Of a DNA stretch of 64,000 nt, positions 14,352 to 64,000 are shown piece by piece. The first letter of the stretch is position 1, and every line of letters begins with the position of its first letter. The stretch lies in the NCBI GenBank assembly GCA_002432655.1, contig DJFZ01000055.1:1643-65642 (forward strand), read 5' to 3'. Under the pieces are notes generated by a model, which did no database searches, had not been told where the DNA came from, and was given only the letters and a program-made list of their open reading frames with translations. Made by a program: the position numbers and the translations under genes. This DNA is from Thiotrichaceae bacterium UBA5859. Its GTDB lineage: Bacteria; Pseudomonadota; Gammaproteobacteria; UBA5859.

Positions 14352-14387
14352 AACGCGTTGAACTAAAACTCATGTTGAATCGAACGC

Positions 14388-14530: not shown

Positions 14531-14989
14531 TCAATATTTAGTCATGTGATTAATGTAGTTCACAAGATGCCACACATCTTCTTCTGTGAGTTGCGGATCC
14601 CAGGTGGGCATATGACCCCGACCATTCTTGATTTTCCAAGCTAGTGCACCATCTGTATCCAGATCATCTGGATTATCATGTTCCGGCTGTACCACTCGTT
14701 TAGCGGTGACCGAATTACTTTCATTCATTGGCCCATGGCACTTGACACAATTCTTTTTAAATAGCTCTTCGCCTTTCATGACAGATTTGCGTGTTTCGCG
14801 CACGGGATTCTGTGTGGCGATGGCTTCCGCAGGCGCCTTCCAGCGCTCTGGATAAGTGACAGTGTTAGCGGAATCTAGCGCCTTATTAGAGGGGGAATCG
14901 TGGCTATGATCCGTCCCGCCCGCTGCAAACAGTGCCGATGTAGGAACCATGATAGAAATAGCAAATGCTACTATTTTTTTTGATTTCAT
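14531..14989 (-). CDS. Secreted mono-haem c-type cytochrome.
   Basis: CVKCHGP haem-binding motif. N-terminal signal MKSKKIVAFAISIMVPTSALFAAGG. The start was moved to the Met at 14989, which is preceded by AGGAG. Confidence 0.75.
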   Translation of the reverse strand: MKSKKIVAFAISIMVPTSALFAAGGTDHSHDSPSNKALDSANTVTYPERWKAPAEAIATQNPVRETRKSVMKGEELFKKNCVKCHGPMNESNSVTAKRVVQPEHDNPDDLDTDGALAWKIKNGRGHMPTWDPQLTEEDVWHLVNYINHMTKY

Positions 14990-15335
14990 TTTGTACTCCA
15001 TCTCCTGATGAGGCATAGTTTGTCCTGAAGCAACTACTCCCCTCCTACTCATACATTAAAACCCACCCTTAACCTCACTCGCCAAGAGCCAGTCTCGGTA
15101 ACCACAAGCCAACACGTTTATAGAACGATTTACAAGCAGATTATCTCCCCACGTCTGATCGGCACGATTTGATCTTACGCAGATTTTTTCGAGTTTGTCG
15201 ATAGCCTAAGCATTTAGCTCGTTTGATTATAAGCACATCAGCGACGTTTAAATCTTCGTTAAACAGACTACTACTAGACGATATAAACCCGTGCGAGCCG
15301 CAATGAAACCCCTTGAGCTCGCACGGTTAACCTAC

Positions 15336-40446: not shown

Positions 40447-40558
40447 AGCCTGTTCCTGTTTGAATATTGCGCTGACTATTTTTGACCAACGGCACTCAAC
40501 AGCATGTATTTTGTTGAATGAATAGTTTGGCGTTAACCAATTTAGGAGCCGTCAACCC

Positions 40559-40900
40559 ATGACATTAAAGTGGACTCAAGTTTGTCTTCTTGAAGAGATT
40601 TTACCGAACACCGGTTGTTGCGCGTTGTATAATCAAATGCAGATCGCAATATTTCGGGTAGATAGTTCGGAACAACTATATGCGGTACAAAATTATGATC
40701 CCCTTGGCGAAGCGAATGTCTTATCGCGAGGCATTGTAGGCGATGTCAATGGAGAATTAGTTGTGGCTTCACCCCTGTATAAACATCACTACTCATTAAA
40801 AACAGGAAAATGTTTGGAAGACGAAACGGTTCAAATTCAAACCTATCCTATCCGAGTGGAAAATGGCCGAGTGGAACTCGGTACGGTTTCTTCACATTAA
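40559..40900 (+). CDS. nirD: Nitrite reductase small subunit (Rieske-like).
   Basis: 113 aa. NirD-like beta-sandwich pattern, directly downstream of nirB. Confidence 0.85.
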   Translation: MTLKWTQVCLLEEILPNTGCCALYNQMQIAIFRVDSSEQLYAVQNYDPLGEANVLSRGIVGDVNGELVVASPLYKHHYSLKTGKCLEDETVQIQTYPIRVENGRVELGTVSSH

Positions 40901-40921: not shown

Positions 40922-43900
40922 ATGAGTCATTTCCTAGATAGATTACAGTTTTTCAAAAAAAAACAAGGACAATTTGCGGACGGCCATGGTGAGATCAGCA
41001 ATGAAGATCGCTCCTGGGAAGATGGTTATCGTCAACGCTGGCAGCACGATAAAATTGTCCGCTCTACCCATGGTGTCAATTGCACCGGATCCTGTAGCTG
41101 GAAAATATACGTTAAAAACGGCCTAGTGACTTGGGAGACTCAACAGACGGATTATCCGCGTACTCGCCCAGACTTACCCAACCACGAACCGAGAGGATGT
41201 CCCCGGGGTGCCAGCTATTCTTGGTACATATATAGTGCTAATCGACTCAAATATCCATTGATTCGCAAAAAGCTGGTGCAATTATGGCGGGCCGCTAGGC
41301 AAACTCACGATCCCGTAGATGCCTGGGAATCTATCGTAGAAGACAGCGAGAAAGCGGCAACCTATAAGCAACAGAGAGGTTTAGGCGGTTTTGTCCGGGC
41401 AACTTGGGATGAAGTGAATGAAATCATCGCCGCTGCCAATACCTACACAATTAAACAGTACGGCCCTGATCGAGTATGTGGTTTTTCACCGATACCTGCC
41501 ATGTCGATGGTGTCCTACGCAGCCGGTACTCGCTATTTGTCCTTAATTGGCGGTACTTGTTTGAGCTTTTATGACTGGTATTGCGATTTACCCCCTAGCT
41601 CTCCTCAAGTGTGGGGAGAACAAACCGATGTGCCCGAATCTGCCGATTGGTATAACTCCAATTTTTTGATCTTATGGGGTTCAAATGTGCCGCAAACTCG
41701 AACACCGGATGCACATTTCTATGCCGAAGTACGTTACAAAGGCACCAAAAGCGTGGTCATTACTCCCGACTTTTCAGAGGCATCAAAGTTTGCCGACCTC
41801 TGGCTTGCGCCTAAACAGGGAACGGATGCTGCGCTCGCAATGGCCTTTGGGCATGTGATCTTAAAAGAGTTTCACGTAGACAATCCGAGTCCATACTTCT
41901 TGAATTATTGTCGTCAATATACGGATATGCCGCTGTTGGTCAAATTGGTGCCTCACGAAGACGGCGCCTTTAAAGCAGATCGTTTTCTTCGCGCTTCAGA
42001 TTTTAACGATGCGTTGGGTGAGGAGAACAACCCCGAGTGGAAAACAGTGGGCTATGACGAACATTCAAAGCAATTTTGTGTGCCCACTGGATCAATAGGT
42101 TTTCGCTGGGGGGAGCAAGGTAAATGGAATATTGAAGAGAAGGACGCCACTGGTCAAGCCACCCAGTTATCTCTGACTCTACTCGACCAACGAGATGAGG
42201 TGGCTTCCGTTGCATTCCCCTACTTTGGCGGAAACGAACGTGAACACTTTCAACATACGGCACACAACGATGTATTGTATCGCAACATTCCTACGAAGAA
42301 AGTGACTTTGTCTACTGGCGAAGAAGTCTTAGTTGCCACTGTCTATGATCTATTATTGGCTCACTACGGTATTGATCGCGGTTTAGGTGGCGACAATGTC
42401 GCGACAAGTTACGACGATGACATTCCTTGCACACCAGCGTGGCAACATAAAATTACTGGCGTTAAATCTCAAGATGTGATCACCGTAGCCCGTCAGTTTG
42501 CCGAGACCGCCCATAAAACTAAAGGGCGCTCCATGATTATCGTGGGTGCGGGGCTGAACCACTGGTATCACAACGATATGAACTATCGCGGCTTAATAAA
42601 TATGCTGTTGATGTGCGGCTGCGTGGGCCAAACAGGCGGTGGCTGGTCGCATTATGTGGGCCAGGAAAAACTTCGACCACAAACCGGATGGACAGCGCTC
42701 GCGTTCGCTCTCGATTGGAATCGTCCACCCAGACAGATGAATGGCACCTCTTTTTTCTATAATCATACCAGTCAATGGCGTTACGAAAAGGTGGGTATTG
42801 AAGAGATCCTTTCGCCGTTAGCGGATAAAGAAAAATATTCCGGTAATGTTTTAGACTATAACATTCGTGCCGAGCGTATGGGTTGGTTACCAAGCGCACC
42901 ACAACTGAATACTAATCCGTTGAATTTGGCTGCTCGAGCGGAAGAGAATAACTTATCAGTAGAAGAGCACCTATGTACCGAACTGAAGTCTGAACAGATC
43001 TCAATGGCTTGTGAAGATCCGGAAGATCCACAAAATTTTCCCCGTAATTTATTTGTCTGGCGTTCTAATATTTTGGGTTCAAGTGGTAAAGGTCACGAAT
43101 ATTTCTTACATCACTTGTTAGGTACCAAACATGGACTGTTGGGCAAAGAACTGGGTGACGACACGAACTTAAAACCAGAAGAGGTAAATTGGCATGAGCA
43201 AGGTGCCACCGGGAAGCTGGATCTGTTGGTCACTTTAGACTTTCGTATGTCTACCACCTGCCTCTATTCAGACATCGTGTTACCCACAGCCAGTTGGTAT
43301 GAAAAGGATGATTTAAACACCTCCGACATGCACCCTTTTATTCATCCATTATCTGCAGCAGTAGATCCAGTATGGGAATCGAGAACTGACTGGGATATCT
43401 ACAAAGGAATAGCGAACAAATTTTCTGAAGTCTGTGTCGGCCACTTAGGCAAAGAAAAAGATGTGGTATTGACCCCGCTGATGCACGATTCCCCTGGTGA
43501 AATTGCCCAGCCCTTTGAGGTAAAAGATTGGAAAAAAGGAGATTGCGATCCCATTCCTGGGAAAACCATGCCGCAGATTAGCGTCATCGAACGCGACTAT
43601 CCAAACACTTATAAAAAGTTCACCTCTCTTGGACCTTTGATGGAGTCCTTAGGCAACGGTGGCAAAGGCATTCATTGGGATACAAAAACGGAAGTAGAAT
43701 TCCTCGGCAAATTGAATCATCCCGTCTTAGATGAGGGTGTTTCTAAAGGACGGCCACAAATTGAAAGCGCCATTGACGCCGCTGAGGTAATCTTGTCTTT
43801 AGCACCAGAAACCAATGGTCAAGTCGCCGTAAAAGCCTGGGAATCCCTAGGTAAAATCACCGGCCGCCAACACACTCATTTGGCAGAACCAAAACAAGAC

Positions 43901-44674
43901 GAAAAAATACGTTTTCGAGACATACAAGCGCAACCGAGAAAAATTATCTCTTCCCCCATCTGGAGTGGGCTCGAAGATGAACATGTCAGTTACAATGCAG
44001 GATACACAAACGTGCATGAGCTGATCCCCTGGCGCACCCTAACCGGAAGGCAACAGTTCTATTTGGATCACCAATGGATATTGGCTTTTGGTGAAGGCTT
44101 TTGCCAATATCGTCCACCAATAGATACCAAGACTGTGAACCCGATATTAAATAAGACGCCTAATGGCAATCGAGAAATTGCGTTAAATTGGATTACGCCT
44201 CACCAAAAATGGGGTATCCACAGCACCTATACTGAAAACCTGCTGATGCTTACTCTTTCAAGAGGTGGTCCCATTATTTGGTTGAGTGAGGTGGATGCAG
44301 CAAAAGTCGACATTGCTGATAATGATTGGGTAGAAGTGTTTAACGTCAACGGGGCGTTAACCGCGCGCGCTGTGGTCAGCCAACGGGTAAATGAAGGCAT
44401 GACGATGATGTATCACGCCCAGGAACGTATCGTCAATAATCCAGGCGCTGAAACCACCGGCACCAGAGGCGGTATTCACAACTCGGTCACTAGAGTGGTA
44501 CTCAAACCCACCCACATGATAGGCGCCTACGCGCAGTTCAGTTATGGTTTTAACTATTACGGTACTGTCGGTTCTAATCGAGATGAATTTGTTATTGTGA
44601 GAAAAATGAATGAAATTGATTGGCTCGACGGTGAAAGTCAACCCTACAAGCAAACAGACGGAGCAGTAGTTTAA
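40922..44674 (+). CDS. narG: Respiratory nitrate reductase alpha subunit.
   Basis: 1250 aa. NarG N-terminal HGVNCTGSCSW Fe-S motif and Mo-bisMGD domains along the full length. It starts 21 bp after the nirD stop. Confidence 0.95.
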   Translation: MSHFLDRLQFFKKKQGQFADGHGEISNEDRSWEDGYRQRWQHDKIVRSTHGVNCTGSCSWKIYVKNGLVTWETQQTDYPRTRPDLPNHEPRGCPRGASYSWYIYSANRLKYPLIRKKLVQLWRAARQTHDPVDAWESIVEDSEKAATYKQQRGLGGFVRATWDEVNEIIAAANTYTIKQYGPDRVCGFSPIPAMSMVSYAAGTRYLSLIGGTCLSFYDWYCDLPPSSPQVWGEQTDVPESADWYNSNFLILWGSNVPQTRTPDAHFYAEVRYKGTKSVVITPDFSEASKFADLWLAPKQGTDAALAMAFGHVILKEFHVDNPSPYFLNYCRQYTDMPLLVKLVPHEDGAFKADRFLRASDFNDALGEENNPEWKTVGYDEHSKQFCVPTGSIGFRWGEQGKWNIEEKDATGQATQLSLTLLDQRDEVASVAFPYFGGNEREHFQHTAHNDVLYRNIPTKKVTLSTGEEVLVATVYDLLLAHYGIDRGLGGDNVATSYDDDIPCTPAWQHKITGVKSQDVITVARQFAETAHKTKGRSMIIVGAGLNHWYHNDMNYRGLINMLLMCGCVGQTGGGWSHYVGQEKLRPQTGWTALAFALDWNRPPRQMNGTSFFYNHTSQWRYEKVGIEEILSPLADKEKYSGNVLDYNIRAERMGWLPSAPQLNTNPLNLAARAEENNLSVEEHLCTELKSEQISMACEDPEDPQNFPRNLFVWRSNILGSSGKGHEYFLHHLLGTKHGLLGKELGDDTNLKPEEVNWHEQGATGKLDLLVTLDFRMSTTCLYSDIVLPTASWYEKDDLNTSDMHPFIHPLSAAVDPVWESRTDWDIYKGIANKFSEVCVGHLGKEKDVVLTPLMHDSPGEIAQPFEVKDWKKGDCDPIPGKTMPQISVIERDYPNTYKKFTSLGPLMESLGNGGKGIHWDTKTEVEFLGKLNHPVLDEGVSKGRPQIESAIDAAEVILSLAPETNGQVAVKAWESLGKITGRQHTHLAEPKQDEKIRFRDIQAQPRKIISSPIWSGLEDEHVSYNAGYTNVHELIPWRTLTGRQQFYLDHQWILAFGEGFCQYRPPIDTKTVNPILNKTPNGNREIALNWITPHQKWGIHSTYTENLLMLTLSRGGPIIWLSEVDAAKVDIADNDWVEVFNVNGALTARAVVSQRVNEGMTMMYHAQERIVNNPGAETTGTRGGIHNSVTRVVLKPTHMIGAYAQFSYGFNYYGTVGSNRDEFVIVRKMNEIDWLDGESQPYKQTDGAVV

Positions 44675-46261
44675 ATGAAAATACGCGCACAGATCGGTAT
44701 GGTATTAAATTTAGACAAATGTATTGGTTGTCATACCTGCTCTATTACCTGTAAGAACGTTTGGACTTCCCGAGAAGGCACCGAATACGCTTGGTTTAAC
44801 AACGTCGAAACTAAACCCGGTGTCGGCTATCCAAAAGAGTGGGAGAATCAGGATCGGTGGAAAGGTGGTTGGAAGCTGAAAGGCAATGGTGAATTGCAAC
44901 CTAAAATTGGTGGCAAATTTAGGGTGCTGGCCAATATTTTTGCCAATCCAGACTTACCAGAAATCGACGACTATTACGAACCATTCGACTTTGATTACCA
45001 ACACCTACATGAAGCGCCAGAGGGCAAACACCAACCCACTGCACGACCTCGCTCACTGATCTCCGGTGAACGCATGGAAAAAATAGAATGGGGGCCAAAC
45101 TGGGAAGAAATTCTGGGTACAGAATTCAAGAAAAGATCAAAAGACAAAAATTTTGACCAAGTACAAAAGGAGATTTACGGTCAATTTGAGAACACATTCA
45201 TGATGTACTTACCGCGTCTATGTGAGCACTGTTTAAATCCTGCTTGTGTAGCCACTTGCCCGTCCGGTGCAATTTACAAACGAGAAGAAGACGGCATTGT
45301 ACTTATCGACCAAGATAAGTGTCGTGGTTGGCGCATGTGCGTGAGTGGATGTCCTTATAAAAAAATCTACTATAACTGGAAATCAGGCAAGTCGGAAAAA
45401 TGTATCTTTTGCTATCCTCGTATAGAGGTGGGACAACCTACTGTTTGCTCCGAAACCTGTGTGGGTCGTATTCGCTATCTCGGTGTGTTGCTCTATGATG
45501 CAGATCGAATTGCGGAAGTGGCTGCCACACCCAACGATCAAGATCTCTATAAAAAACAGCTAGAGATATTCTTAGATCCGAATGATCCAGACATCATTGC
45601 GCAGGCCAGAAAAGATGGCGTTCCAGACAATTGGTTGGAAGCAGCGCAGCGTTCACCAGTTTATATGTTAGCAATGGACTGGCAACTTGCCCTACCCTTA
45701 CACCCGGAATACCGCACCTTGCCCATGGTTTGGTACGTGCCTCCCCTGAGTCCAATTCAGAGTGCTGCGGACAGCGGCGCCATCGGCATGAATGGCATCA
45801 TTCCAGATGTCGACAGTTTGCGGATCCCACTAAAATATCTTGCCAACATGCTCACCGCAGGAGACGAAGCACCAGTGTTACTGGCCCTAAAGAGACTCCT
45901 CGCCATGCGCGCCTATAAGCGAAGCGAAGAAGTGGATGGAGAAGTCAATCATAAAGTTTTGGATGAAGTTAACCTCACTCGCGAACAGGTTGAAAGCATG
46001 TACCGCTATTTGGCTATCGCCAATTATGAAGATAGGTTTGTCATCCCAACCGGCCACCGAGAATATGCAGTGGAGGCGTTCCCAGAAAAATCGGGTTGTG
46101 GCTTCAGCTTCGGTAATGGTTGCTCCGATGGGAACTCAAACCTAGGTCTATTTGGTAATAATCGCGCCAATTCAACCACAGTGAAGTCCTTGTCTGGATC
46201 TGAGTCTGCCACCGAAGGCAATCCATTAGAGATCCGTCAATTATTCTCCTCCCGACGCTAA
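44675..46261 (+). CDS. narH: Respiratory nitrate reductase beta subunit.
   Basis: Four Cys clusters (CIGCHTCSITC, CEHCLNPACVATCPSGA, CRGWRMCVSGCPY, CIFCYPR). Its ATG abuts the narG stop. Confidence 0.95.
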   Translation: MKIRAQIGMVLNLDKCIGCHTCSITCKNVWTSREGTEYAWFNNVETKPGVGYPKEWENQDRWKGGWKLKGNGELQPKIGGKFRVLANIFANPDLPEIDDYYEPFDFDYQHLHEAPEGKHQPTARPRSLISGERMEKIEWGPNWEEILGTEFKKRSKDKNFDQVQKEIYGQFENTFMMYLPRLCEHCLNPACVATCPSGAIYKREEDGIVLIDQDKCRGWRMCVSGCPYKKIYYNWKSGKSEKCIFCYPRIEVGQPTVCSETCVGRIRYLGVLLYDADRIAEVAATPNDQDLYKKQLEIFLDPNDPDIIAQARKDGVPDNWLEAAQRSPVYMLAMDWQLALPLHPEYRTLPMVWYVPPLSPIQSAADSGAIGMNGIIPDVDSLRIPLKYLANMLTAGDEAPVLLALKRLLAMRAYKRSEEVDGEVNHKVLDEVNLTREQVESMYRYLAIANYEDRFVIPTGHREYAVEAFPEKSGCGFSFGNGCSDGNSNLGLFGNNRANSTTVKSLSGSESATEGNPLEIRQLFSSRR

Positions 46262-46271
46262 GAGGTGATGA

Positions 46272-46958
46272 ATGAAAAACCTTAAGCTCATCTCTATTCT
46301 GCTCTCCTATCCAGAGCCTAGTTGGTTCTGTGAATTCGATAACATGATTGAATACATCAATGCAGATCAAGAGTTCACCCCGGAGCAGAAGCAAAAACTA
46401 TTAGAGTTTATTGAGTTACTCTCTTCTGAAGATGTTCTGGACTCTCAGGAGCGTTATGTGGCTACCTTTGATAGAGGCCGCTCTGTATCTATGTTGCTGT
46501 TCGAACATATCCACGGCGAATCAAGAGATAGAGGCCAAGCCATGGTGGATTTGCTGCACACTTACGAATCACGCGGATTTGAACTGAGCGTATCAGAACT
46601 ACCCGATCACTTAACTGTTTTTTTAGAATTTCTATCCCAATGTGCTCCCGAGGAATCTGTTCTATGGCTTTCTGAGGTTTCGAATATATTGGTTCTCATT
46701 TGTTCTAGACTCTACGAACGGCAGAACCCTTATTCAGATCTTTTCAAAATACTCTGCGAGCTCGGCGGAATAACTGAGTTTGATAACCAAACGCTGAACC
46801 AGGTGAAATTGGAGCCAAGGGATGATACACCCGATGCTCTCGACAAGGTTTGGGAAGAAGAGGCGGTACGTTTTGTTGGTAATAATGTCATGGGGGGCGT
46901 ACCCGCTTCTTCTGACCAACAATCTATAAACGACCTAACGCTTAAATCTATATCATAA
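46272..46958 (+). CDS. narJ: Nitrate reductase molybdenum cofactor assembly chaperone.
   Basis: 228-aa acidic protein at the canonical position between narH and narI. TorD/NarJ-like helical pattern. Confidence 0.8.
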   Translation: MKNLKLISILLSYPEPSWFCEFDNMIEYINADQEFTPEQKQKLLEFIELLSSEDVLDSQERYVATFDRGRSVSMLLFEHIHGESRDRGQAMVDLLHTYESRGFELSVSELPDHLTVFLEFLSQCAPEESVLWLSEVSNILVLICSRLYERQNPYSDLFKILCELGGITEFDNQTLNQVKLEPRDDTPDALDKVWEEEAVRFVGNNVMGGVPASSDQQSINDLTLKSIS

Positions 46959-46970
46959 AGGAGCCAAACC

Positions 46971-47663
46971 ATGGCATGGTTGAATCATTTCATTCACGAA
47001 ATTCTTTTTGGGCTTTTCCCTTATTTCGCTCTGACGGTTATGGTACTAGGTTCAATCATAAGATTTGACCGCGAACAATATACTTGGCGAAGCGGATCCA
47101 GTCAGATGTTGCGCAATAAATCATTTAGGTTGGCAAGTAACCTATTTCATTTCGGCATCTTATTTCTCATGCTAGGTCATTTTGTCGGACTCTTAACGCC
47201 ACCCAAAATCTATCATGCATTTGGATTATCGACAGCGGACAAACAGATCCTTGCTATGAGCGCTGGAGGGGCTGCTGGCATTGTTTGTTTTGTCGGACTA
47301 ACCATGTTGTTACATAGACGGCTCTACGATCCCAGGATTAGAGCAACGAGTTCATTTAGCGATATTTTGATTCTTCTACTCATTTATGCGCAGTTGATCT
47401 TGGGTCTTTTTTCAATTGTTGTTTCCGCGTTTCATATGGATGGTACACAGATGGTATTGCTGGCAGAGTGGGCCCAACGAATTGTCAGTTTCAGATCTGA
47501 TGCCGCCGATCAACTCCTACACGTGAATTGGGTATATAAGTTACATGTGTTTCTCGGACTCATTATCATCTTAGTATTTCCTTTCACACGATTGATACAC
47601 ATCATCAGTGCCCCGATATGGTATCTAGGCAGAAGTTATCAGATTGTGAGAACCAGAAGGTAA
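46971..47663 (+). CDS. narI: Respiratory nitrate reductase gamma subunit (dihaem cytochrome b).
   Basis: 230 aa with five TM helices and conserved haem-ligand His positions. Confidence 0.85.
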   Translation: MAWLNHFIHEILFGLFPYFALTVMVLGSIIRFDREQYTWRSGSSQMLRNKSFRLASNLFHFGILFLMLGHFVGLLTPPKIYHAFGLSTADKQILAMSAGGAAGIVCFVGLTMLLHRRLYDPRIRATSSFSDILILLLIYAQLILGLFSIVVSAFHMDGTQMVLLAEWAQRIVSFRSDAADQLLHVNWVYKLHVFLGLIIILVFPFTRLIHIISAPIWYLGRSYQIVRTRR

Positions 47664-47667
47664 GCAT

Positions 47668-48507
47668 ATGTCCAATCCCATCGAAATCAAAATATCAGAG
47701 CCACTACATACCCAGAGCCCAGCTGAATCTGTTGATACTGTTGTTAAAGTCAATGGGCAAACCATCAGCGAAGAGACCATTGCTCGGGAAATGCAATATC
47801 ACCCAGCAGACAATCAAGAGCAAGCATATTTTCTGGCCACCCAAGCGTTGGTGATCCAAGAGGTTCTCTGTCAACGTGCTGACTCTCTATTCGTCAATCA
47901 AAAAACCAAGTTAACTTTAAATACAGACAAAAAAATCGAAGCTGTGCTAGAAGAGGAAGTAGCAGTACCTACCCCTTCTGAGCCAGAACTCAGGCGGTAT
48001 TATTCTCAGAATGAAGACAAATTTAGAACCGGCGATTTGTTGGAAGTCAGCCATATCTTGTTGGCAGCCGCACCAGAAGATGCCGTCATGCGACAACAAC
48101 TGAAAGAAAAGGCGTATCTACTCATTGAACAATTAGTTAAACAACCCAAGAAATTTTCTAAATTGGCGAAAACCTATTCCGCCTGCCCTTCCAACAATAC
48201 GGGCGGCAGTCTTGGACAAATTAGCAAAGGTCAAACCGTTGTGGAATTTGAAAAAGCCTTACAAACCTTGCCTGAAGGACTTTCACCGCACCCAATTGAA
48301 TCTCGTTACGGCTTTCATATAATTCGTATAGACAGAAGAGTAGAAGGTAAATTGTTGCCATTTGAGTTGGCGCGAGATCGCATACATCAATACATGTTTG
48401 AACAGGTACAAAGACGCGCCATCAGTCAATACATTTCTCTATTATTAGCAGAGGCAGAAATTGAAGGCTTTGACATCAATACGCCTTCTAGTCCTCTGGT
48501 CCAGTAG
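47668..48507 (+). CDS. PpiC/parvulin-type peptidyl-prolyl cis-trans isomerase linked to the nar operon.
   Basis: C-terminal parvulin domain (SHILLAAAPED..., GFHIIRIDRR). It starts 4 bp after narI. A comparable ppiC-type gene follows narI in Pseudomonas. Confidence 0.75.
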   Translation: MSNPIEIKISEPLHTQSPAESVDTVVKVNGQTISEETIAREMQYHPADNQEQAYFLATQALVIQEVLCQRADSLFVNQKTKLTLNTDKKIEAVLEEEVAVPTPSEPELRRYYSQNEDKFRTGDLLEVSHILLAAAPEDAVMRQQLKEKAYLLIEQLVKQPKKFSKLAKTYSACPSNNTGGSLGQISKGQTVVEFEKALQTLPEGLSPHPIESRYGFHIIRIDRRVEGKLLPFELARDRIHQYMFEQVQRRAISQYISLLLAEAEIEGFDINTPSSPLVQ

Positions 48508-48567: not shown

Positions 48568-50022
48568 CTAAATGTTTCGCACACTCACCTTAGGCAGATT
48601 TTCGGTTTCTTTTTCTTTAAACTCTCCTGCCCCCATACCCAATTGATCAGGGAAGAAGAACTGCACATCTAGATCAATTTCTTGAAAGTCTTTAGGTAGT
48701 TCGTAGACATCGAAACCTGCCCTGGGATACGCACCTGGAAAATTTTCAAATTTCATTTCATCATTCGGATCATCTACATATAGTAGTTTAACGCCCACAG
48801 GAAAGGTCTCTGGTATATTGATTCTGGCAAATACGTCCCAACCGTAAGGACTAGATAACCATAGCCAAGAACGTTCACGATCGATGTCTAAATTCTTTTC
48901 AAAATCACTTAGTTTCCCGTCGACAATGCCCCAGGCGTTAACATCCGGGGAAATGGCAGAATTAAAACGTGCACCGGTCTGCTCGTTAAAATCTAATGCA
49001 ATATAGATGTGAGGCTCCACCAGAAAACGAGTCAAAATATCTGCTCCGGGGATATTAATTCGCGCCTTAAACCCAAGCATTTGATCAAAAATATTCATCT
49101 GTGCACGAATTTTAAATACAGGCACTTTGGCAACCACCACAGTCAATTTAATGATAACGTTGGTTTTTACGGGCCCGCTCACAGCGCCTACCGGCACAGC
49201 TTTAATATCTTCAAAAGTGTTGAGATTAACTCTGGGCGCGAATCTCGTTAATACGCCGGTATCTATTTCTGCAAACACAGAATCCAATACTCTAGCGCCG
49301 GCCATGGGTCCAATCAAAGGATAAAAATCTTCGAAATTGAGAAAATTTTTGGTATCAGTATCAAATCCGTAAAAGGTGGTTTTAGCAGCGGAAGTTTCGA
49401 AATCGTAAGTCACATAGCTGACTTCGGAACGTTGAGAAGACCCCTTCACAATGTATATGTATCTCTTATTACCGTCCCGCTCTAATTCTACTTCTTTGAC
49501 AATATCTAAACCGGTTTCTCCAGCCGTGGAGAGGTGCTCGCCGGTATCACGGTACATAAACACCAATTGATCGTTCTTATCTAAAATGCCTAATGTGCCG
49601 TCTATCTTGCCTTCACCTTCTAAATAAACCCAACCCTTAGTATCGTATTCATCAAATTGAAAGGGAATGGGGATCACTTTCCCATCTCGAATGGTCACTA
49701 CAGACAATTGCTCTAGTGATTCACCTAATAAATCTCCCAATTCTTCTCCCCGTAACTCAACTGGATATAAATAGGTAAAGTGGCTAAACCCCATTTCTGC
49801 GATTGCACTGGAAAGTTGTTCTGGAGAGAGTTGCGTCATTAATTCGCTATTCTTAGCGAGATAAGTTGGATCTTTCTTGTATTCTTTTAATAAAGATTGA
49901 AACTGTTCATCGGGCAAGTACTCAAATTTTGCTTGAATGCCCGGCGAGATGAGAAATACAGATAAAGAAAAAAACCAAGCATAACGACTTGCAAAAATTG
50001 ATTTAGATATTTTTTTTCTCAT
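48568..50022 (-). CDS. Hypothetical secreted protein, 484 aa. Possibly a DUF1329/LolA-like beta-rich protein.
   Basis: N-terminal signal peptide. Beta-rich composition with aromatic residues at alternating positions. No catalytic motif. Confidence 0.45.
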   Translation of the reverse strand: MRKKISKSIFASRYAWFFSLSVFLISPGIQAKFEYLPDEQFQSLLKEYKKDPTYLAKNSELMTQLSPEQLSSAIAEMGFSHFTYLYPVELRGEELGDLLGESLEQLSVVTIRDGKVIPIPFQFDEYDTKGWVYLEGEGKIDGTLGILDKNDQLVFMYRDTGEHLSTAGETGLDIVKEVELERDGNKRYIYIVKGSSQRSEVSYVTYDFETSAAKTTFYGFDTDTKNFLNFEDFYPLIGPMAGARVLDSVFAEIDTGVLTRFAPRVNLNTFEDIKAVPVGAVSGPVKTNVIIKLTVVVAKVPVFKIRAQMNIFDQMLGFKARINIPGADILTRFLVEPHIYIALDFNEQTGARFNSAISPDVNAWGIVDGKLSDFEKNLDIDRERSWLWLSSPYGWDVFARINIPETFPVGVKLLYVDDPNDEMKFENFPGAYPRAGFDVYELPKDFQEIDLDVQFFFPDQLGMGAGEFKEKETENLPKVSVRNI

Positions 50023-50278: not shown

Positions 50279-51907
50279 TTAATTCTCATTGGTGGAATAC
50301 ACTAAAAACACATTACCAGCTTTCTCACCAAAGATTTTATAACCGGAATTGACATACAGCTGGTTTCCCACGATCACCGGACCATCTGCATCCAAAGAAC
50401 CACCTTTACCGATCTTGCCATCAGTGGTTGGTACTTCCGCTGTCGTATCCACTTGCCAAAGCACCTTACCGTTAACCGCGTCATACGCACGTAAATGACC
50501 GTCCAGTGCCCCGGAGAAGATCACACCCGGAATCGCGCTCGGTGCGGCTGACAGTCCAGGATCACACTCTTCTCTATTTTCACAGATTGGCAGTGACGGC
50601 GTCTCCCACAAGACAGACCCATCTGTTGGAGACAGAGCATACAGACCAGGCACCTTGCTCATGCTCGGATCTTCCGGAAGTGGCGCATTTAAGCCGGGAA
50701 TTTCCTGAAGATAATCGGAAACTGGCACATATAAGCGCTCGCCATCAAAAGTTAACCCCCAGTGGATACCACCTAGTGCACCGCCCCGGCCGACGCGTTT
50801 TTGCCAGATGAGTTGACCACCGTTATCCGGATCTAATGCGTAAACAACGCCATTCTTTTGCCCTGCAAATATCATATCTTTGCCATTTGCCAAGGTTGCG
50901 AGTAATGGGGAAGCACCAAAATCCAAGTCTAATCCTGGGTTCTCAGGACAGTTAATTGCACCAGGTAGTGCGCAACCAAAATTCCAGGCATCATTGCTCG
51001 TGGCTTGGAACACCCACTTCATTTCCCCGTTTTTAAGATCCATTGCCAATATCGCATCACTGGTATTGGTGGCAGGATGGGAATAATTTTCACCTGTACC
51101 GACATACAATAGGCCGCGTTTTTCGTCTATGGTGGGACTGTTCCAGATGGGCGCTCCAGATGGCCCATACTGTGAAACAAACAATTTATTTCTTCCTTGT
51201 TTCGTAGGTGCCTCCGACACGTACTGTTGCCATATTATTTCACCCGATTTTGCATCTAAGGCGGCAACAGAGCCGCGAAATTTACAGCAGCTGTAAAACG
51301 GTATCGCCGGTAATGCTACCTCAAAGGACGAGACTGGTACGTAAAGTATGCCATTGTGGAGCGTGGGAGAACCAGTGATAGTTGCGGCAATGTGATCATC
51401 AAGGGAGGTCTTCCATACTCTCTCTCCAGTTGCGGCCCGCACCGCATGTGCATTGCCAAAAAAATCGCCAAAGAAAAGTAGTCTCTCCCCTCCAGCTCCA
51501 GCATAACCAATAGAAATCGCTGTTCTGATTTCCGGGCTAATACCGAATCCGTCACTAGTTTTATACTGCCAGCGTATACAACCTGTTTCTCTGTCTAAGG
51601 CGTAGAGCTTACCCTTCTGGCTACCAACAAATATCGTGTCCTCCGTTATCGCTGGTTGAGAACGCGCTTTATTTGCACGTGGGAAACGAAATGCCCATTT
51701 TAGGGTGAGCTTGGAGACCGAGTCTTTATCGATAGCAACTGTGTCACTATCTAAGTAGCGTGTGTTAGTAGGTGTGAATCCCCAACCACTAGCCAAAATT
51801 TTTGCGGTGTCATTGTAGTTTTGGTTGGTTTGTTCTGAACATAATTTGGCGGATACAGAAAAACTAAAAGTAACAGAAAATACAGCTAGAATAATTCTAT
51901 TCAACAT
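50279..51907 (-). CDS. PQQ-like beta-propeller repeat protein. Putative secreted quinoprotein-like dehydrogenase, not an MxaF/XoxF-type methanol dehydrogenase.
   Basis: Signal peptide. Repeated W-x-Y/W propeller blades (KLYALDRETGCIRWQYK, GEIIWQQY, GEMKWVFQ, GQLIWQKR, GSVLWETP, GKVLWQV). It lacks the MDH signature motif and the vicinal Cys-Cys. Confidence 0.6.
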   Translation of the reverse strand: MLNRIILAVFSVTFSFSVSAKLCSEQTNQNYNDTAKILASGWGFTPTNTRYLDSDTVAIDKDSVSKLTLKWAFRFPRANKARSQPAITEDTIFVGSQKGKLYALDRETGCIRWQYKTSDGFGISPEIRTAISIGYAGAGGERLLFFGDFFGNAHAVRAATGERVWKTSLDDHIAATITGSPTLHNGILYVPVSSFEVALPAIPFYSCCKFRGSVAALDAKSGEIIWQQYVSEAPTKQGRNKLFVSQYGPSGAPIWNSPTIDEKRGLLYVGTGENYSHPATNTSDAILAMDLKNGEMKWVFQATSNDAWNFGCALPGAINCPENPGLDLDFGASPLLATLANGKDMIFAGQKNGVVYALDPDNGGQLIWQKRVGRGGALGGIHWGLTFDGERLYVPVSDYLQEIPGLNAPLPEDPSMSKVPGLYALSPTDGSVLWETPSLPICENREECDPGLSAAPSAIPGVIFSGALDGHLRAYDAVNGKVLWQVDTTAEVPTTDGKIGKGGSLDADGPVIVGNQLYVNSGYKIFGEKAGNVFLVYSTNEN

Positions 51908-60106: not shown

Positions 60107-60623
60107 AACTCAACGAGCGGCATCCCCAATTTTTTTCTGAGCCACATTAATAAACTCGCCTGTTTCATTTCCTCTGATTAATTGTATTTATAGTAGGAAA
60201 TACAAGAAAATTTTTTGCAATTAGCCGACTAAATGTAGACAGGCTGTTGCTTCTTCTTGTTATTAACAAATGAAAATTGTAAAAGCCATTAAAGTAATAG
60301 TAAGCCCATATTCAACATCATTAGTTACAAATTCAAATAATTCGATTATATACCCCTCTTTTATAACCTGCCTTGAATCTCTTCTTATAATATTTTTAAT
60401 ATCATTCCATTTACCATAAGTTAGCTGTATTACTAACATAGGATAATCTATTCACGTAGTCCTAATATTTAAGTGGGCATCAAATCTGACTAATGTTTAA
60501 TAAGCAATAAATTAGTTTGAATGTCAATTTCGATGTGTGGATGCTAAAAAGATAGTCGCAATAGACTAGGCACGTAAATAACAAGTAATTAAATCAATTG
60601 GTGGACACTAACGGAGAATGCAT
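60107..60623 (+). promoter_or_regulatory. AT-rich 510-bp leader/promoter region upstream of the copper monooxygenase operon.
   Basis: No ORF. Strongly AT-rich with a TATAAT hexamer at 60386-60391. Canonical pmo/amo operons also carry long 5-prime leaders. Confidence 0.35.
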
Positions 60624-61430
60624 ATGGCTACAACCTTAGATAATCAGCGCACATTGCTGCGCGATGACATTCAGGTGAAAGAAGTTGAAGATCTGGACAA
60701 ACCACCAAAAGTACCTTGGTTAATGGCCATCGTTGGAGTTTCCGCAGGCGTAGCCATTTTCATCGCTTATCGACTGTATATGAATCATTACTCCTTTACT
60801 GTGGGTTTGGATTATTTTTCACAAGAATTTCAAGTTTATTGGATGCGAGTCTTCTGGGGACAACTAGCAATTATGGGTGTCATTTTTGCCGTGGCCGCTC
60901 CTTGGTTGTGGATGACAAGAGAAAAAGATCCTGCGGCTGTACCACCAAGGCTTGAGCTGAGAAGATACTATAGTATGTTTGCTATTTTGGCATTGGCTGC
61001 ATTTGCTGCCTTTGTGGCATTAGGTCTCTTCGGCGAAGCTGATGCAGCATGGCACCAAGTCACCATTAGAGATACAGATTTCACGCCAACCCATATTGGT
61101 CTGTTTTATTTTGCCATGCCGCTGATGTTTGGCGCTCTGTTGCTGGCATTTATTTGGATTCATACTCGTCTTCCGGATTTTATGAATCGAATATCCATTC
61201 CATTTGCTCTATTGGCTGCTGGTCCCTTTCTGATTTTCCCTAATCTTGGTTTTAACGAATGGGGGCATACCTTCTTCTATGCTGAAGAGTTATTTGGCTC
61301 ACCAGTACATTATGGATTCTTTGTATTGGGGTTTGGTTTCTTTGCTTTCGGCGGTTTTTTAGTTCAATGCTACAATCGCATCGCAAAATTAACAGACTTA
61401 GATGGTGACGAAGAACCCGATCACGCATAA
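60624..61430 (+). CDS. pmoC: Copper membrane monooxygenase subunit C (PmoC/AmoC family).
   Basis: Long collinear match to PmoC of Methylococcus, as recalled from memory: WHQVTIRDTDFTPTHIGLFYF..., TRLP..., ISIPFALLAAGPFLIFPNLGFNEWGHTFFYAEELF..PVHYGF. The start was set to the second ATG, which has a GGAGA RBS. ORF track 60618..61430. Confidence 0.85.
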   Translation: MATTLDNQRTLLRDDIQVKEVEDLDKPPKVPWLMAIVGVSAGVAIFIAYRLYMNHYSFTVGLDYFSQEFQVYWMRVFWGQLAIMGVIFAVAAPWLWMTREKDPAAVPPRLELRRYYSMFAILALAAFAAFVALGLFGEADAAWHQVTIRDTDFTPTHIGLFYFAMPLMFGALLLAFIWIHTRLPDFMNRISIPFALLAAGPFLIFPNLGFNEWGHTFFYAEELFGSPVHYGFFVLGFGFFAFGGFLVQCYNRIAKLTDLDGDEEPDHA

Positions 61431-61588
61431 TTAAAATATCTGCAAAAGCGGAAGTGCTAAACCCTTCCGCTTTTTTTTATTCGAAGTTAGATGATTATTT
61501 TTCTTCAATCATTTTTGCGTTAAACATTCTAAAACAATACTAACGCGCCCATTAATCCTAAAAATAGATTAATCACCAGAGGTAAATT

Positions 61589-62395
61589 ATGGCCATAGTC
61601 ACACCAGAGTCCAATGAAAGTCCCGACAAAGATCCCAAGTATAGTGGCGAGCGCAGCGCCAAGTCCGCCATAACCACTAGAGAGGAACAAATAGAAGCAT
61701 TTCGCAATATCGATCTGGTGAGTATTCCCATCATTATCTTATTGTTCGGTGGCATTACCGTATTTTTGTCCGCGGTTACGGTTGGAGACTGGGACTATTG
61801 GATGGACTGGCGGGATCGTCGTTGGTGGCCGTTAGTGACTCCGGCCGTCTACATTATATTCCCAGCGGTAATTGGTACCTTTACCTGGAAAAAATTTCGA
61901 TTACCCATTGGCGCCACAGCTACTATGTTTGCCTTTGTTATCGGTTTATGGCAAAGCCGATATTTCAACTTCCATTCTTTTGCAGGTTTTCCGTTAAACT
62001 TTGTTGCGCCCTCAACATTTATTGTTTTAGGAATTATTCTGGATGCCACTTTGCTGTGGACAAAGAGTTTTTTCGCAACCGGATTTATCGGTGCCTTCTT
62101 TTTTGGTGCCCTACCCTACGCAGTAAACTGGCCGGTGTTTGCATTATGGCATGTACCCGTATCTTACGACGGCAATTTGCTCACAGTCGCCGATCTTGCG
62201 GGGTATCAATATATTCGCACTGCCATCCCAGAGTATGTTCGCATCATCGAGGAATCTACCCTACGCACCTTCGGTGAGGCCGTGACACCGCTCACCGCTT
62301 TCTTTGCAGGGTTTGTCTGTGTACTCAACTACTACCTTTGGGTGGTGATTGGTAGTTACCTATCAGAAAGTCGTTGGACTCATAAAGTCTGGTAA
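61589..62395 (+). CDS. pmoA: Copper membrane monooxygenase subunit A (PmoA/AmoA family). Divergent, with a roughly 16-aa N-terminal extension.
   Basis: Matches PmoA as recalled from memory: GDWDYWMDWRDRRWWPLVTP..., RYFNF, PLNFVAP, ILDATLL, ALWHVPVSYDGNLLTVADLAGYQYIRTAIPEYVRIIEESTLRTFGEAV. AGAGG RBS. Identity to canonical gammaproteobacterial PmoA is about 50% by eye. Confidence 0.85.
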   Translation: MAIVTPESNESPDKDPKYSGERSAKSAITTREEQIEAFRNIDLVSIPIIILLFGGITVFLSAVTVGDWDYWMDWRDRRWWPLVTPAVYIIFPAVIGTFTWKKFRLPIGATATMFAFVIGLWQSRYFNFHSFAGFPLNFVAPSTFIVLGIILDATLLWTKSFFATGFIGAFFFGALPYAVNWPVFALWHVPVSYDGNLLTVADLAGYQYIRTAIPEYVRIIEESTLRTFGEAVTPLTAFFAGFVCVLNYYLWVVIGSYLSESRWTHKVW

Positions 62396-62430
62396 ATCTT
62401 TCTGTTAAGTACATTAGGAGTGTTGTTGAA

Positions 62431-63762
62431 ATGAAAACGAATCAAAACCGACAATCTAATTTGAGACAAATTCAAGTCAAGATCCGAGCACAAAAACCGC
62501 ATCAAGATATGAATCGAATCTTTGCTGCCACTTTCTTACTACTATTGATTCTCATGGCGACCTTTATTTTAGCCAGTAACGCTTATGCTCATGGTGAGAA
62601 GGCGCAACAAGCAGGATTACGCATGCGTACTCTGAACTGGTTCGACACGGAAATATACCCTAGGGAGATGTCTGTCAACGACAACTTGACGATCAAAGGT
62701 AAATTTATGCCTTCTGAACACTGGCCGCGACATATGGCCTCTATTACAGATACGGCATTTTTGAATGTAGGGGTGCCCGGTCCTGCCTTTATTCGAGTTA
62801 ATTCCAATGTGAATGGCACACCCATGATTCGCTCCACCAGTTTTGAACTTGGTAAGATCTATGAGTATGAAATCAATTTGAAAGCACGTATTCCAGGCCG
62901 CTATCACGTACACCCCATTATTAATGTGAAAGGTGCCGGACCTATTATTGGACCTGCTTTTTGGGTAAACGTGGGTGGTGATCAAGCAAACTTTGTCAAT
63001 ACAGCCACCACACTCGATGGCACCGTCATTGATATGGAAACCTACGGTTTAAACGCCTCAATTTGGCTCCATGTCTTTTGGGTTATTTTTGGGTTGGCGT
63101 GGATTGCATATTGGTTCCGTAATATGCGAAAAGATCCTGTTATTATGCCCCGCTTTAAAAAGGTAAAGATGTTAGGGCCAGAGAGAGCTGACGAATTAAT
63201 TACCCGTCGCGAAACCCTTATGGGCATGATAGTGCTGGGGGCAATGCTCACTATTATCACCGGAGGATTCTTCTTAACTCAGCAGGTTGTTCCGCAAACA
63301 ATTCCTTTACAAACTGGTTGGATACCTATTGAGCCCATAGAAAACCCCACCACCAATGAAGTAATTAAAATCAAAGTAGGAGAATCCACCTATCGAATTC
63401 CTGGTAGAAGTTTCCAAGTCGAAATGACCATCACCAATAATACGCCTCGCCCAATTCAGATAGGGGAATTTATGACGGCCAATATTCGTTTTATAAATTC
63501 TCAGGTACAGACTGTAATAGCAGAAGATACGCATCATCTAATTGCCTCCGATGCACTCCGAGTAGAAGGTGGCCCAATTCTGCCCGGAGAAACCAAAACC
63601 ATTAAGATGATCGCAGAAGACGCGCTTTGGGAATCAGAGCGATTGACTAGTTTGGTATATGATCCAGATAGCTTCTTCGCTGGAATGATATTCTTCTTTG
63701 ATGATGAGGGTAACCGCTATTATCGTGAAATCGGCGGTACTATGTTCCCTACCTTCATCTAA
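62431..63762 (+). CDS. pmoB: Copper membrane monooxygenase subunit B (PmoB/AmoB family).
   Basis: The signal peptide ends ...ASNAYA followed by HGEK (N-terminal copper-ligand His). It has the GRYHVHP HxH motif, NVKGAGPIIGP, a central two-TM hairpin and the C-terminal cupredoxin domain ending YDPDSFFAGMIFFFDDEGNRY. AGGAG RBS. The true start may be the internal Met 26 codons downstream. Confidence 0.85.
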   Translation: MKTNQNRQSNLRQIQVKIRAQKPHQDMNRIFAATFLLLLILMATFILASNAYAHGEKAQQAGLRMRTLNWFDTEIYPREMSVNDNLTIKGKFMPSEHWPRHMASITDTAFLNVGVPGPAFIRVNSNVNGTPMIRSTSFELGKIYEYEINLKARIPGRYHVHPIINVKGAGPIIGPAFWVNVGGDQANFVNTATTLDGTVIDMETYGLNASIWLHVFWVIFGLAWIAYWFRNMRKDPVIMPRFKKVKMLGPERADELITRRETLMGMIVLGAMLTIITGGFFLTQQVVPQTIPLQTGWIPIEPIENPTTNEVIKIKVGESTYRIPGRSFQVEMTITNNTPRPIQIGEFMTANIRFINSQVQTVIAEDTHHLIASDALRVEGGPILPGETKTIKMIAEDALWESERLTSLVYDPDSFFAGMIFFFDDEGNRYYREIGGTMFPTFI

Positions 63763-63817
63763 AAATCTGTTAGAAAGTTCGTTTTTTATTGGACGACTAG
63801 ATACAAACCATAAAAAA

Positions 63818-63847
63818 CCCCCGCGAAAATGCGGGGGTCTTTTGTTT
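63818..63847 (+). terminator. Rho-independent terminator after pmoB.
   Basis: cccccgc-gaaaat-gcggggg followed by tcttttgttt. Confidence 0.7.
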
Positions 63848-64000
63848 CTAAGTTTCCTAACCTTTAGGAGTAAGAAATTTAATAATACGCCGCATCCATT
63901 TTGGCGCTGATTGTCCATAGGGTTTGCTTAAAAATGGTGTCGGAGAAAAGGCATCTGCACTTTTTACCATGACCGACTTTTTATGAGAGAACTCTGCAAA

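Follow-up and report, generated by a model that had tools for sequence, protein, structure and literature searches.

Copper membrane monooxygenases (CuMMOs) control how methane, ammonia, and gaseous alkanes are drawn into the carbon and nitrogen cycles, and automated annotation pools all of them as 'methane/ammonia monooxygenase'. A 64,000-nt stretch of DNA from Thiotrichaceae bacterium UBA5859 (GCA_002432655.1, contig DJFZ01000055.1; this whole stretch is referred to as the window) carries a three-gene CuMMO operon, pmoCAB, in the region 60107-63847, and the question raised by this locus is what its product oxidises. An earlier reading of the window, made from the letters alone (the sequence-only reading), had held that an alkane or alkene oxidiser was possible and that the substrate could not be assigned from sequence, and our analysis supports both points. 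We propose that the operon would encode a functional heterotrimeric CuMMO of the particulate hydrocarbon monooxygenase type, with a C2-C5 n-alkane as its most likely substrate, and we hold this reading with moderate confidence. It is favoured because of the placement of the operon in a proteobacterial xmoCAB(D) radiation, its oil-associated relatives, the origin of the DNA in the Pensacola Deepwater Horizon (DWH) series, the genes beside it, and two PmoC substitutions (W234F and M236A) shared with hydrocarbon monooxygenase (HMO). Within that radiation, which is known and under-characterised, the operon represents a small new subclade with a bare architecture.

Subunits and copper ligands

Three consecutive CuMMO open reading frames (ORFs) in the order C-A-B had been noticed in the window, and their coordinates and Pfam matches bear this out. 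The genes lie one after the other on the plus strand (the Pfam cut-offs for AmoC, AMO, and Monooxygenase_B are 23-28 bits):

60618-61430, plus strand: pmoC/xmoC (Pfam AmoC, 3e-61, 207 bits), which holds the CuC and CuD sites
61589-62395, plus strand: pmoA/xmoA (Pfam AMO, 3e-78, 264 bits), with a 20-aa N-terminal extension and the motif GDWDYW
62431-63762, plus strand: pmoB/xmoB (Pfam Monooxygenase_B, 7e-122, 408 bits), with a signal peptide and the CuB ligands

The PmoA extension, previously put at about 16 aa, measures 20 aa relative to the protein of Methylococcus capsulatus Bath.

Metal ligands were assigned by alignment to the solved chains of particulate methane monooxygenase (pMMO) and of ammonia monooxygenase (AMO) in the PDB, and the claimed conservation of copper-site residues was confirmed for CuB, CuC, and CuD. 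PmoB carries the CuB ligands H54, H159, and H161 (Bath H33, H137, and H139), with H54 directly after the signal peptide (NAYA, then HGEK). PmoC carries the CuC ligands D142, H146, and H159 (Bath D156, H160, and H173) and the CuD ligands N213, H217, and H231 (Bath N227, H231, and H245). DTDFTPTH had been named among the copper-site motifs of PmoC; its histidine is indeed a ligand, but the CuC aspartate lies within EADAAWH. PmoA E215, the equivalent of Bath E195, is also kept. The bis-His site, which is known only in M. capsulatus, is absent from PmoB (N69).

Four further PmoA positions differ from Bath, with V58, L60, A62, and L120 (61760-61948) replacing His38, His40, Met42, and Glu100. His38, Met42, and Glu100 surround the 'CuE' or tricopper site proposed by Chan and colleagues. 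Quantum refinement gave no support to that site (PMC12576850). His38 is found in 0/61 PmoA sequences of the radiation versus 36/36 in the other sampled clades. Its loss was considered as a unique hallmark and rejected, since 10 of the 21 near-full-length family representatives from an exhaustive search also lack it; it is a clade signature rather than a singular feature, and other deep CuMMO lineages are without His38 as well. The absence of His38 may be taken as one more natural indication that the 'CuE' site is dispensable.

Phylogenetic position

Neighbour-joining trees (Kimura correction, 100 bootstraps) were built for subunit A, subunit B, concatenated C+A+B (903 columns), and subunit A with functional references. 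A scan of one genome per species yielded 80 CuMMO loci, among which the methanotroph matches were all of the A-B-C order, namely pxm. Because this peptide-pattern search gave pxmABC and not pmoCAB for methanotrophs, the canonical references were drawn from the PDB (Bath, 20Z, Methylocystis sp. M, OB3b, and one AMO), from plasmids (hmoCAB of Mycolicibacterium chubuense NBB4, Rhodococcus ZPP, and M. dioxanotrophicus; pxmABC of Methylomagnum), and from a published supplement (Supplementary Dataset S7 of PMC12510462: Haliea ETY-M/NAG, ET-SHO/ET-HIRO, Group X, Group Z, DWH plume transcripts, several PmoA, and Nitrosomonas AmoA).

Placement in a reference CuMMO phylogeny, which the sequence-only reading had proposed as a check, put the operon outside pMMO, AMO, Pxm, Group X/Haliea, and HMO and inside the xmoCAB(D) radiation. 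The window operon groups with WDNA12_a and NORP220_a (100%), and the sister of this trio comprises UBA3067_a, CTOTU26803_a, NORP74_b, and NORP120_a (79-90%). Both subclades fall within a set of 63 proteobacterial sequences that is supported at 100% (A), 99% (B), 100% (C+A+B), and 98% (A with functional references). Its members include Porticoccaceae, Nevskiales (Solimonas relatives, Panacagrimonas, and Sinimarinibacterium), metagenome-assembled genomes (MAGs) labelled Macondimonas, and operons of Polaromonas/Rhodoferax/Acidovorax; Cycloclasticus is excluded along with the clades named above. The Pxm references form a clade of their own (100%), and the window order is C-A-B, not A-B-C.

The radiation is also marked by short sequence signatures. 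In subunit A, these are GDWDYW…WRDRRWWPL, PEYVRIIEESTLRTFG, and the lack of His38, and the window PmoA conforms to GDWDYW and to the missing histidine. In subunit C, EADAAWH stands in place of the pMMO sequence EQDGTWH, and NEWGHTFFYAEELF in place of the NEWGHTFWFMEELF of pMMO and Cycloclasticus; the window PmoC conforms to both. The PmoC substitutions W234F, F235Y, and M236A sit between two CuD ligands (FFYAEELF), and W234F and M236A are common to the alkane-oxidising actinobacterial HMO. V241G is a further PmoC change at the CuC/CuD cavity.

Pairwise identities agree with a divergent position. PmoA is 39-41% identical to pMMO sequences, and the figure for M. capsulatus is 41% by BLASTP and not the roughly one half that had been estimated by eye. 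It is 43% identical to Nitrosomonas AmoA (core only; Is79A3), 40-46% to Pxm, 46-48% to Cycloclasticus/Group Z, 35-38% to HMO, 36-37% to Haliea, 35-41% to the ethane oxidisers, and 37% to Group X (33-41% for Haliea, ethane, and Group X sequences overall). For PmoB, the values are 43% (Bath), 38% (AMO, PDB 9leg_B), and 25-26% (HMO). The window subclade is rare: only seven 90%-identity clusters among 5.8 billion proteins are more than 70% identical to the window PmoA, and an exhaustive search of 1.84 billion representatives gave 169 matches to the CuMMO-A family, the best of them 48% identical. Two unusual architectures were also seen in the wider family (P0263 and P0265): a protein of 985 aa whose PmoA domain is C-terminal, preceded by some 650 aa that are unrelated, and a 514-aa PmoC-PmoA fusion.

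The suggestion that the operon might be an undescribed CuMMO lineage overstated its novelty. The broad lineage is already known, since CuMMOs of the radiation appear in earlier studies (PMC6215863; PMC8630023; bioRxiv 10.1101/2023.07.16.546273), and the window subclade is not specifically described. Solimonas xmo was listed as of unknown function (Khadka et al. 2018, PMC6215863), the substrates of divergent gammaproteobacterial xmo were again handled as hypotheses in a 2025 preprint, and the radiation is regarded in the literature as putative short-chain-alkane monooxygenases.

Methane and ammonia as candidate substrates

The enzyme could be a pMMO and its host an unrecognised methanotroph. 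Public annotation names these genes methane/ammonia monooxygenase subunits. The best PDB matches of all three subunits are pMMO chains and every pMMO copper ligand is present, yet we consider this very unlikely. The subunits are 41-43% identical to those of pMMO, and they score below the NCBIfam equivalog cut-offs of TIGR03078/TIGR03080/TIGR03079 (C, 191.2 < 280.6; A, 253.6 < 318.15; B, 391.9 < 394.9). The trees set the operon apart, with high support, from the pMMO references of both gamma and alpha type, and genes for methanol dehydrogenase and C1 assimilation were not found in the 64-kb window or in the 10 kb downstream. Related betaproteobacterial populations were also reportedly found by Rochman and colleagues to be incapable of methane assimilation.

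The alternative that the enzyme is an AMO and the organism a nitrifier draws on NCBIfam models. PmoB passes AmoB_BACT (512.3 > 336), and PmoA and PmoC score highest with AmoA_BACT and AmoC_BACT; both, however, stay below the respective cut-offs (A, 268.7 < 290; C, 235.6 < 319). The AmoX_BACT models also name the pxmABC genes of a Methylomagnum plasmid (L095:4070-6881) and Cycloclasticus genes 'ammonia monooxygenase' (amoA/B/C in PGAP annotation), so this label is uninformative on substrate. Since PmoB passes AmoB_BACT, an oil-associated heterotroph can be mis-flagged as a methanotroph or nitrifier. PmoB is 38% identical to the solved AMO, PmoA is 43% identical to the Nitrosomonas AmoA core, and the operon lies outside the AMO branch. 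The hao, cycAB, amoED, and copCD genes were not detected in the window or its flank. The window does encode an active nitrogen metabolism (nirBD and narGHJI), but these genes are reductive rather than nitrifying. We regard an AMO as highly improbable. Thus, the claim of a divergent CuMMO distinct from both canonical pMMO and canonical AMO holds: PmoA and PmoC fall below both model sets, the trees separate the operon from both, and neither methanotrophs nor nitrifiers are among the nearest named AroC relatives of the host, described below.

The Pfam content of the window agrees with the earlier statement that the rest of the 64 kb lacks genes of C1 or ammonia metabolism: no methanol dehydrogenase, hao, cycAB, tetrahydromethanopterin, ribulose monophosphate, or pmoD/copCD genes were found there. 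A pyrroloquinoline quinone (PQQ) propeller protein (50279-51907, minus strand, 542 aa) was considered as an alcohol or methanol dehydrogenase and rejected, as the sequence-only reading had already done for methanol dehydrogenase; with 147 bits it stays far below the cut-off of the PQQ alcohol dehydrogenase model (480), its match is confined to the first half of that model, and it has BamB-like partial matches. Its neighbour, a 484-aa ORF (48568-50022), has no family match.

Host and habitat

The exact proteins are present on a 181,739-bp contig from a beach-sand metagenome (SRR1570769, PRJNA260285) and in related runs, and also in the MAG GCA_003490045.1, whose depositors named it 'Gammaproteobacteria bacterium'. 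The project PRJNA260285 comprises the field series from Pensacola Beach (DWH). AroC, encoded just upstream of the operon, is 90% identical to that of a sister MAG and at most 77% identical to all others, the nearest named organisms being Ca. Tenderia, Thiogranum, and Marinimicrobium. Because of this gap, the host, which is uncultured and marine, appears to be a poorly sampled gammaproteobacterial lineage that belongs to neither Methylococcales nor Nitrosococcales.

Other genes in the window include those for Lon, acyl-CoA dehydrogenases, MaoC dehydratases, and a PAS histidine kinase. The narGHJI genes (respiratory nitrate reductase) and a gene for a PpiC-type rotamase adjoin nirBD (assimilatory nitrite reductase) and a major facilitator superfamily (MFS) transporter gene (40922-48507 and 37900-40800), and the CuMMO host can probably use nitrate for respiration or assimilation, as open-ocean Cycloclasticus is reported to do. 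A CusB/CzcB-type resistance-nodulation-division (RND) metal efflux system (OEP, MFP, and ACR_tran), a weakly NosL-like gene, and a cytochrome c gene (727-6542 and 13878-15052) may be relevant to copper handling.

Intactness and selection

Since most related operons have pmoD and accessory copper genes that are missing here, the window copy could be a decaying, non-functional extra, a reading that we find scarcely credible. To measure selection, the operon was compared with its closest relative, L007 (MAG 'Thiotrichaceae bacterium WDNA12_bin.8'), whose PmoA is 94% identical and from which the synonymous divergence (dS) is saturated at 1.2-2.2. The ratio of nonsynonymous to synonymous divergence (dN/dS) was 0.045 for pmoC, 0.016 for pmoA, and 0.034 for pmoB, at the level of neighbouring aroC (0.028). 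In addition, the reading frames are intact, every metal ligand is kept, and the bare architecture recurs in several genomes of the sister subclade. The decay reading is effectively refuted by the selection analysis. In the first 25 codons of pmoA, dN/dS is about 0.17, which is looser and still constrained, and the N-terminal extension is therefore taken to be translated.

The GC content of the operon matches that of the window, and the upstream gene order MFS-aroC-prmB-smr is common to the window genome and L007. Together with purifying selection as strong as on aroC, these observations indicate that the operon is resident and maintained, neither a relic nor a recent import.

A second operon and the accessory genes

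The host carries at least two CuMMO operons. The second was found in the same MAG, GCA_003490045.1, and in the same samples (L090:6746-16500; L091; L092, which is DNIX01000228.1), and its PmoA is 61% identical to the window PmoA. It reads thiolase-like, aldehyde dehydrogenase, hypothetical, GMC oxidoreductase, pmoC-pmoC-pmoA-pmoB, followed 3' of pmoB by a PmoD homologue (matching PDB 6cpd, E 5e-12), a 559-aa multicopper oxidase, and then two ORFs with weak similarity to cupredoxins and to alpha/beta-hydrolases, respectively. The aldehyde dehydrogenases beside the two operons are 59% identical. The absence of pmoD had been asserted from the window, but this ends 238 bp after pmoB and by itself leaves the point undecided. 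It is confirmed by the source contig for the window operon, a bare C-A-B unit, but not for the organism, whose second operon has pmoD. Likewise, the picture of an operon on its own needs correcting, given this fuller second operon and the aldehyde dehydrogenase and acyl-CoA ligase genes just past the window.

Across the 80 loci, pmoD lies 3' of xmoB in 56 and a multicopper oxidase gene in about 26. A pmoD directly after xmoB is absent from the window operon, L007, and the sister subclade (L009, L013, and L014), and the window subclade and its sister lack both genes despite 6-9 kb of downstream sequence. A pmoD after xmoB is thus a variable feature of the radiation and its absence is not disqualifying. 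All five genomes with a verified bare operon (window organism, WDNA12, NORP120, NORP74, and UBA3067) also carry a full xmoCAB-pmoD operon.

Several further arrangements were recorded in the survey. Downstream of xmoB, about 20-26 loci (within L011-L084) share a conserved accessory module, pmoD - multicopper oxidase - hyp264 - hyp311; they represent several classes of Proteobacteria, and Cycloclasticus is among them. Here, hyp264 and hyp311 match no Pfam or NCBIfam family above threshold, and no description of a multicopper oxidase linked to xmoB was found in the CuMMO literature examined. Eight loci of Macondimonas-type and other organisms (L015, L016, L017, L018, L019, L042, L025, and L063) have xmoA-xmoB with no xmoC in the available upstream flank, which fits reports of separately encoded extra pmoC copies. 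L018 and L066 (DATLZY01, 'Candidatus Acidiferrales bacterium', labelled Acidobacteriota) cluster tightly with Macondimonas-type sequences and AMX-MBFR-76, and their Acidobacteriota label probably reflects mis-binning or a wrong label.

Proposed function and substrate

By homology with pMMO and AMO, PmoB would carry the periplasmic CuB site, and PmoA would complete the membrane core of a trimer of XmoCAB protomers. In the CuC/CuD pocket of PmoC, O2 would be activated and a small hydrophobic substrate hydroxylated; this pocket has been identified as the pMMO active site (PMC11725843). The substrate would be a small, water-soluble oil or gas hydrocarbon, most probably a C2-C5 n-alkane, oxidised to its alcohol. 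From this alcohol, steps catalysed by alcohol dehydrogenase, aldehyde dehydrogenase, and acyl-CoA ligase could lead to beta-oxidation, for which the GMC-type alcohol dehydrogenase gene by the second operon and the aldehyde dehydrogenase and ligase genes by the window operon are candidates. The bare operon presumably relies in trans on the pmoD and copper-handling genes of the second operon, and it would constitute an isozyme whose substrate range or affinity is probably unlike that of the second.

Past the window end, the source contig carries genes for an aldehyde dehydrogenase, an AMP-forming acyl-CoA ligase, and a double esterase, all convergent on pmoB. The first of them reaches into the window:

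63860-64000, minus strand: 3' end of the aldehyde dehydrogenase gene, last 47 codons (located by tblastn with the aldehyde dehydrogenase of L001 as query)

The best NCBIfam model for the dehydrogenase is benzaldehyde dehydrogenase-like and those for the ligase are medium/long-chain acyl-CoA ligase-like, in both cases below the equivalog cut-offs. Related arrangements exist elsewhere: directly upstream of xmoC, the betaproteobacterial loci carry genes for GMC oxidoreductase, aldehyde dehydrogenase, and ligase, and AMP-binding genes follow hmoCAB in M. chubuense NBB4 and Rhodococcus ZPP. As soft evidence, these neighbourhoods fit a route from alkane through alcohol, aldehyde, and acid to acyl-CoA.

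Several points weigh against an alkane substrate. The ligase is only 28-29% identical to those beside actinobacterial hmoCAB. An aldehyde dehydrogenase gene lies within 10 kb in only about 16% of related loci, which is close to chance for a large family. Neither neighbour is kept in L007, where synteny stops at the terminator and bacterioferritin-like, fatty-acid-hydroxylase-like, and DUF1111-like di-haem genes follow pmoB (L007:12174-18118 versus L001:11333-21332). Because the neighbours match broad families below the cut-offs, chain length and substrate class are not indicated. The adjacency, once considered strong evidence, was downgraded on these grounds (loss in L007, ligase identity, and sub-cut-off matches). 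The runs SRR1570769 and SRR1570765 may stem from either the oiled or the clean phase of the Pensacola series, whose 16 metagenomes date from before the oil and from July 2010, October 2010, and June 2011. No member of the subclade has been tested, no enzyme of the radiation has been purified or heterologously expressed, and the CuMMOs of Polaromonas, Rhodoferax, and Solimonas are listed as of 'unknown function' (Awala et al. 2021, PMC8630023).

Another class of small molecule could be the natural substrate. The enzyme might be an alkene (ethylene/propylene) epoxidase, as in Haliea, or a ketone/acetone oxidiser, as Methylacidiphilum PmoCAB3. It might also act on larger oil volatiles, whether C5+, cyclic, or methyl-aromatic, the bare paralogue having specialised away from C2-C4 n-alkanes. 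CuMMOs are promiscuous, and acetone (PMC8630023) and ethylene (Haliea) have been found as natural substrates. The paralogues of one genome belong to different old subclades, which suggests different specificities, an argument also made for Cycloclasticus; the CuD-flanking residues are unlike those of pMMO and Cycloclasticus, and the best models of the adjacent genes point to benzaldehyde and to medium or long chains. Those model matches, however, fall below every equivalog cut-off and are non-specific. The window PmoA is 36-37% identical to Haliea PmoA-like sequences and outside their clade, and the window and flanks showed no genes for epoxide handling or for an acetol pathway. The physiology known for the radiation reportedly concerns ethane and propane only. 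On balance, we judge this alternative to be rather unlikely.

A narrower proposal concerns the bare subclade as a whole, that is, the window operon, its two closest relatives, and the sister group. These might be isozymes specialised for substrates beyond the C2-C4 n-alkanes, such as the volatiles of weathered oil that are C5+, cyclic, or methyl-aromatic, a tentative idea to which we give a rather low probability. In this subclade only the CuB/CuC/CuD ligands are kept, with no pmoD in cis, no bis-His site, and no His38/Met42/Glu100. If it were true, the bare subclade would be a naturally minimal CuMMO and could help settle the catalytic sites and the determinants of substrate size.

If a C2-C5 alkane is the substrate, as we prefer, organisms of this kind would be part of a hidden sink for volatile hydrocarbons after spills. 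The radiation is recurrent in oil, tar, sand, and subseafloor metagenomes. GDWDYW, FFYAEELF by CuD, and the loss of the PmoA 'tricopper' residues with the PmoC sites kept offer handles for primers, probes, and mutagenesis.

Flanking signals

The genes for Smr, a PrmB-type methyltransferase, and chorismate synthase lie directly upstream of the operon, in accordance with the smrB/prmB/aroC block described before. Also recognised earlier were an AT-rich leader, given as 510 bp and measuring 511 bp, and a strong terminator, which is a bidirectional hairpin. The flanking features are as follows:

60107-60617, plus strand: 511-bp AT-rich leader in the smr-pmoC intergenic region, 31% GC
60495-60530, plus strand: conserved leader block, from pairwise alignment with the L007 leader
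60611-60626, plus strand: conserved ribosome-binding site ACGGAGAAT and two start-codon candidates of pmoC (60618 and 60624)
63812-63843, both strands: bidirectional intrinsic terminator hairpin, G+C-rich, with T runs on both sides

The leader has a GC content of 31% versus 43% for the operon. At saturated synonymous divergence from L007, the block at 60495-60530 is the sole well-conserved part of the leader besides the ribosome-binding site, and it is a candidate promoter or regulatory site. Within the leader, sigma-70-like hexamers were no commoner than in shuffled sequence and no sigma-54 consensus was found. A search of the leader and operon against Rfam gave no family, only sub-threshold matches on the terminator hairpin. 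Translation of pmoC probably starts at the second ATG, 60624 (268 aa), because L007 has an ATG only there and gene callers give the 268-aa product. The terminator has a stem of 13 pairs on the minus strand and 9 on the plus strand and is common to pmoB and the convergent aldehyde dehydrogenase gene.

Comparison with known systems

The pMMO of M. capsulatus Bath (PDB 1yew, 3rgb, 7s4h, and others) likewise has three subunits in C-A-B order, the CuB/CuC/CuD ligands, and PmoA Glu195. The window operon differs from it in sequence (41% identity for A, 43% for B, and 41% for C), in the missing bis-His site, in the replaced His38/His40/Met42/Glu100, in W234F, F235Y, and M236A by CuD, in its N-terminal subunit extensions, and in having no methanol dehydrogenase context. 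The actinobacterial HmoCAB of Mycolicibacterium chubuense NBB4 and Rhodococcus sp. ZPP, linked to C2-C4 alkane oxidation, shares Phe234 and Ala236 of PmoC with the window operon and also has an AMP-binding gene adjoining it. It is nevertheless the most distant reference, in an outgroup position (35-38% for A, 25-26% for B, and 26-31% for C), plasmid-borne, and with the motif GDWSFW. The CuMMOs of Haliea ETY-M/ETY-NAG and of ET-SHO/ET-HIRO 'Group X' are also from marine Gammaproteobacteria and act on C2 hydrocarbons (ethylene/ethane), but their PmoA identity is 33-41%, and the tree gives them a clade of their own (92%), which groups closer to pMMO/AMO than to the radiation.

Cycloclasticus pHMO, with Group Z and the DWH plume 'group 2', represents the CuMMOs of marine hydrocarbon degraders, with several divergent paralogues per genome, and is the nearest neighbour of the radiation in the concatenated tree (95%). 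Cycloclasticus keeps the pMMO-type GDWDFW, His38/His40/Met42/Glu100, and FWFMEELF, which the window operon does not. In a study of its divergent pHMO paralogues, the substrate of one clade was labelled 'unknown', and GDWDYW is absent from the whole CuMMO dataset of that study (PMC12510462).

Two systems lie within the radiation itself. The phmCAB of UBA5335/Ca. Macondimonas belongs to oil- and tar-associated marine Gammaproteobacteria, and the Macondimonas-labelled loci reach 64-65% PmoA identity, with extra pmoC copies and several operons per genome. It has been placed outside known alkane-oxidiser clades and far from methanotroph sequences, and it has been read as a short-chain alkane monooxygenase of tar and oil communities (bioRxiv 10.1101/2023.07.16.546273). 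The window operon is in a different subclade, and its host is not demonstrably UBA5335 (its AroC has no close named relative). In the Macondimonas-type loci of this survey, A-B is accompanied by pmoD and a multicopper oxidase gene and C is not adjacent, in contrast to C-A-B without pmoD in the window.

The xmoCABD operons of Polaromonas/Rhodoferax (L043-L046) share with the window operon GDWDYW, NEWGHTFFYAEELF, EADAAWH, and the lack of PmoA His38. They are also in C-A-B order, with several paralogues per genome and with aldehyde dehydrogenase, GMC oxidoreductase, and acyl-CoA ligase genes nearby. A 2020 study by Rochman and colleagues describes them in its title as encoded by alkane-utilising Betaproteobacteria; betaproteobacterial xmoCABD has reportedly been tied to ethane and propane by 13C stable isotope probing, single-cell genomes, and propane-induced transcription. 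These operons are 51-52% (A) and 47-50% (B) identical to the window operon and belong to another subclade and another host class, and they have pmoD directly after xmoB where the window operon has none. They come from freshwater oil-sands, whereas the window organism lives in marine beach sand.

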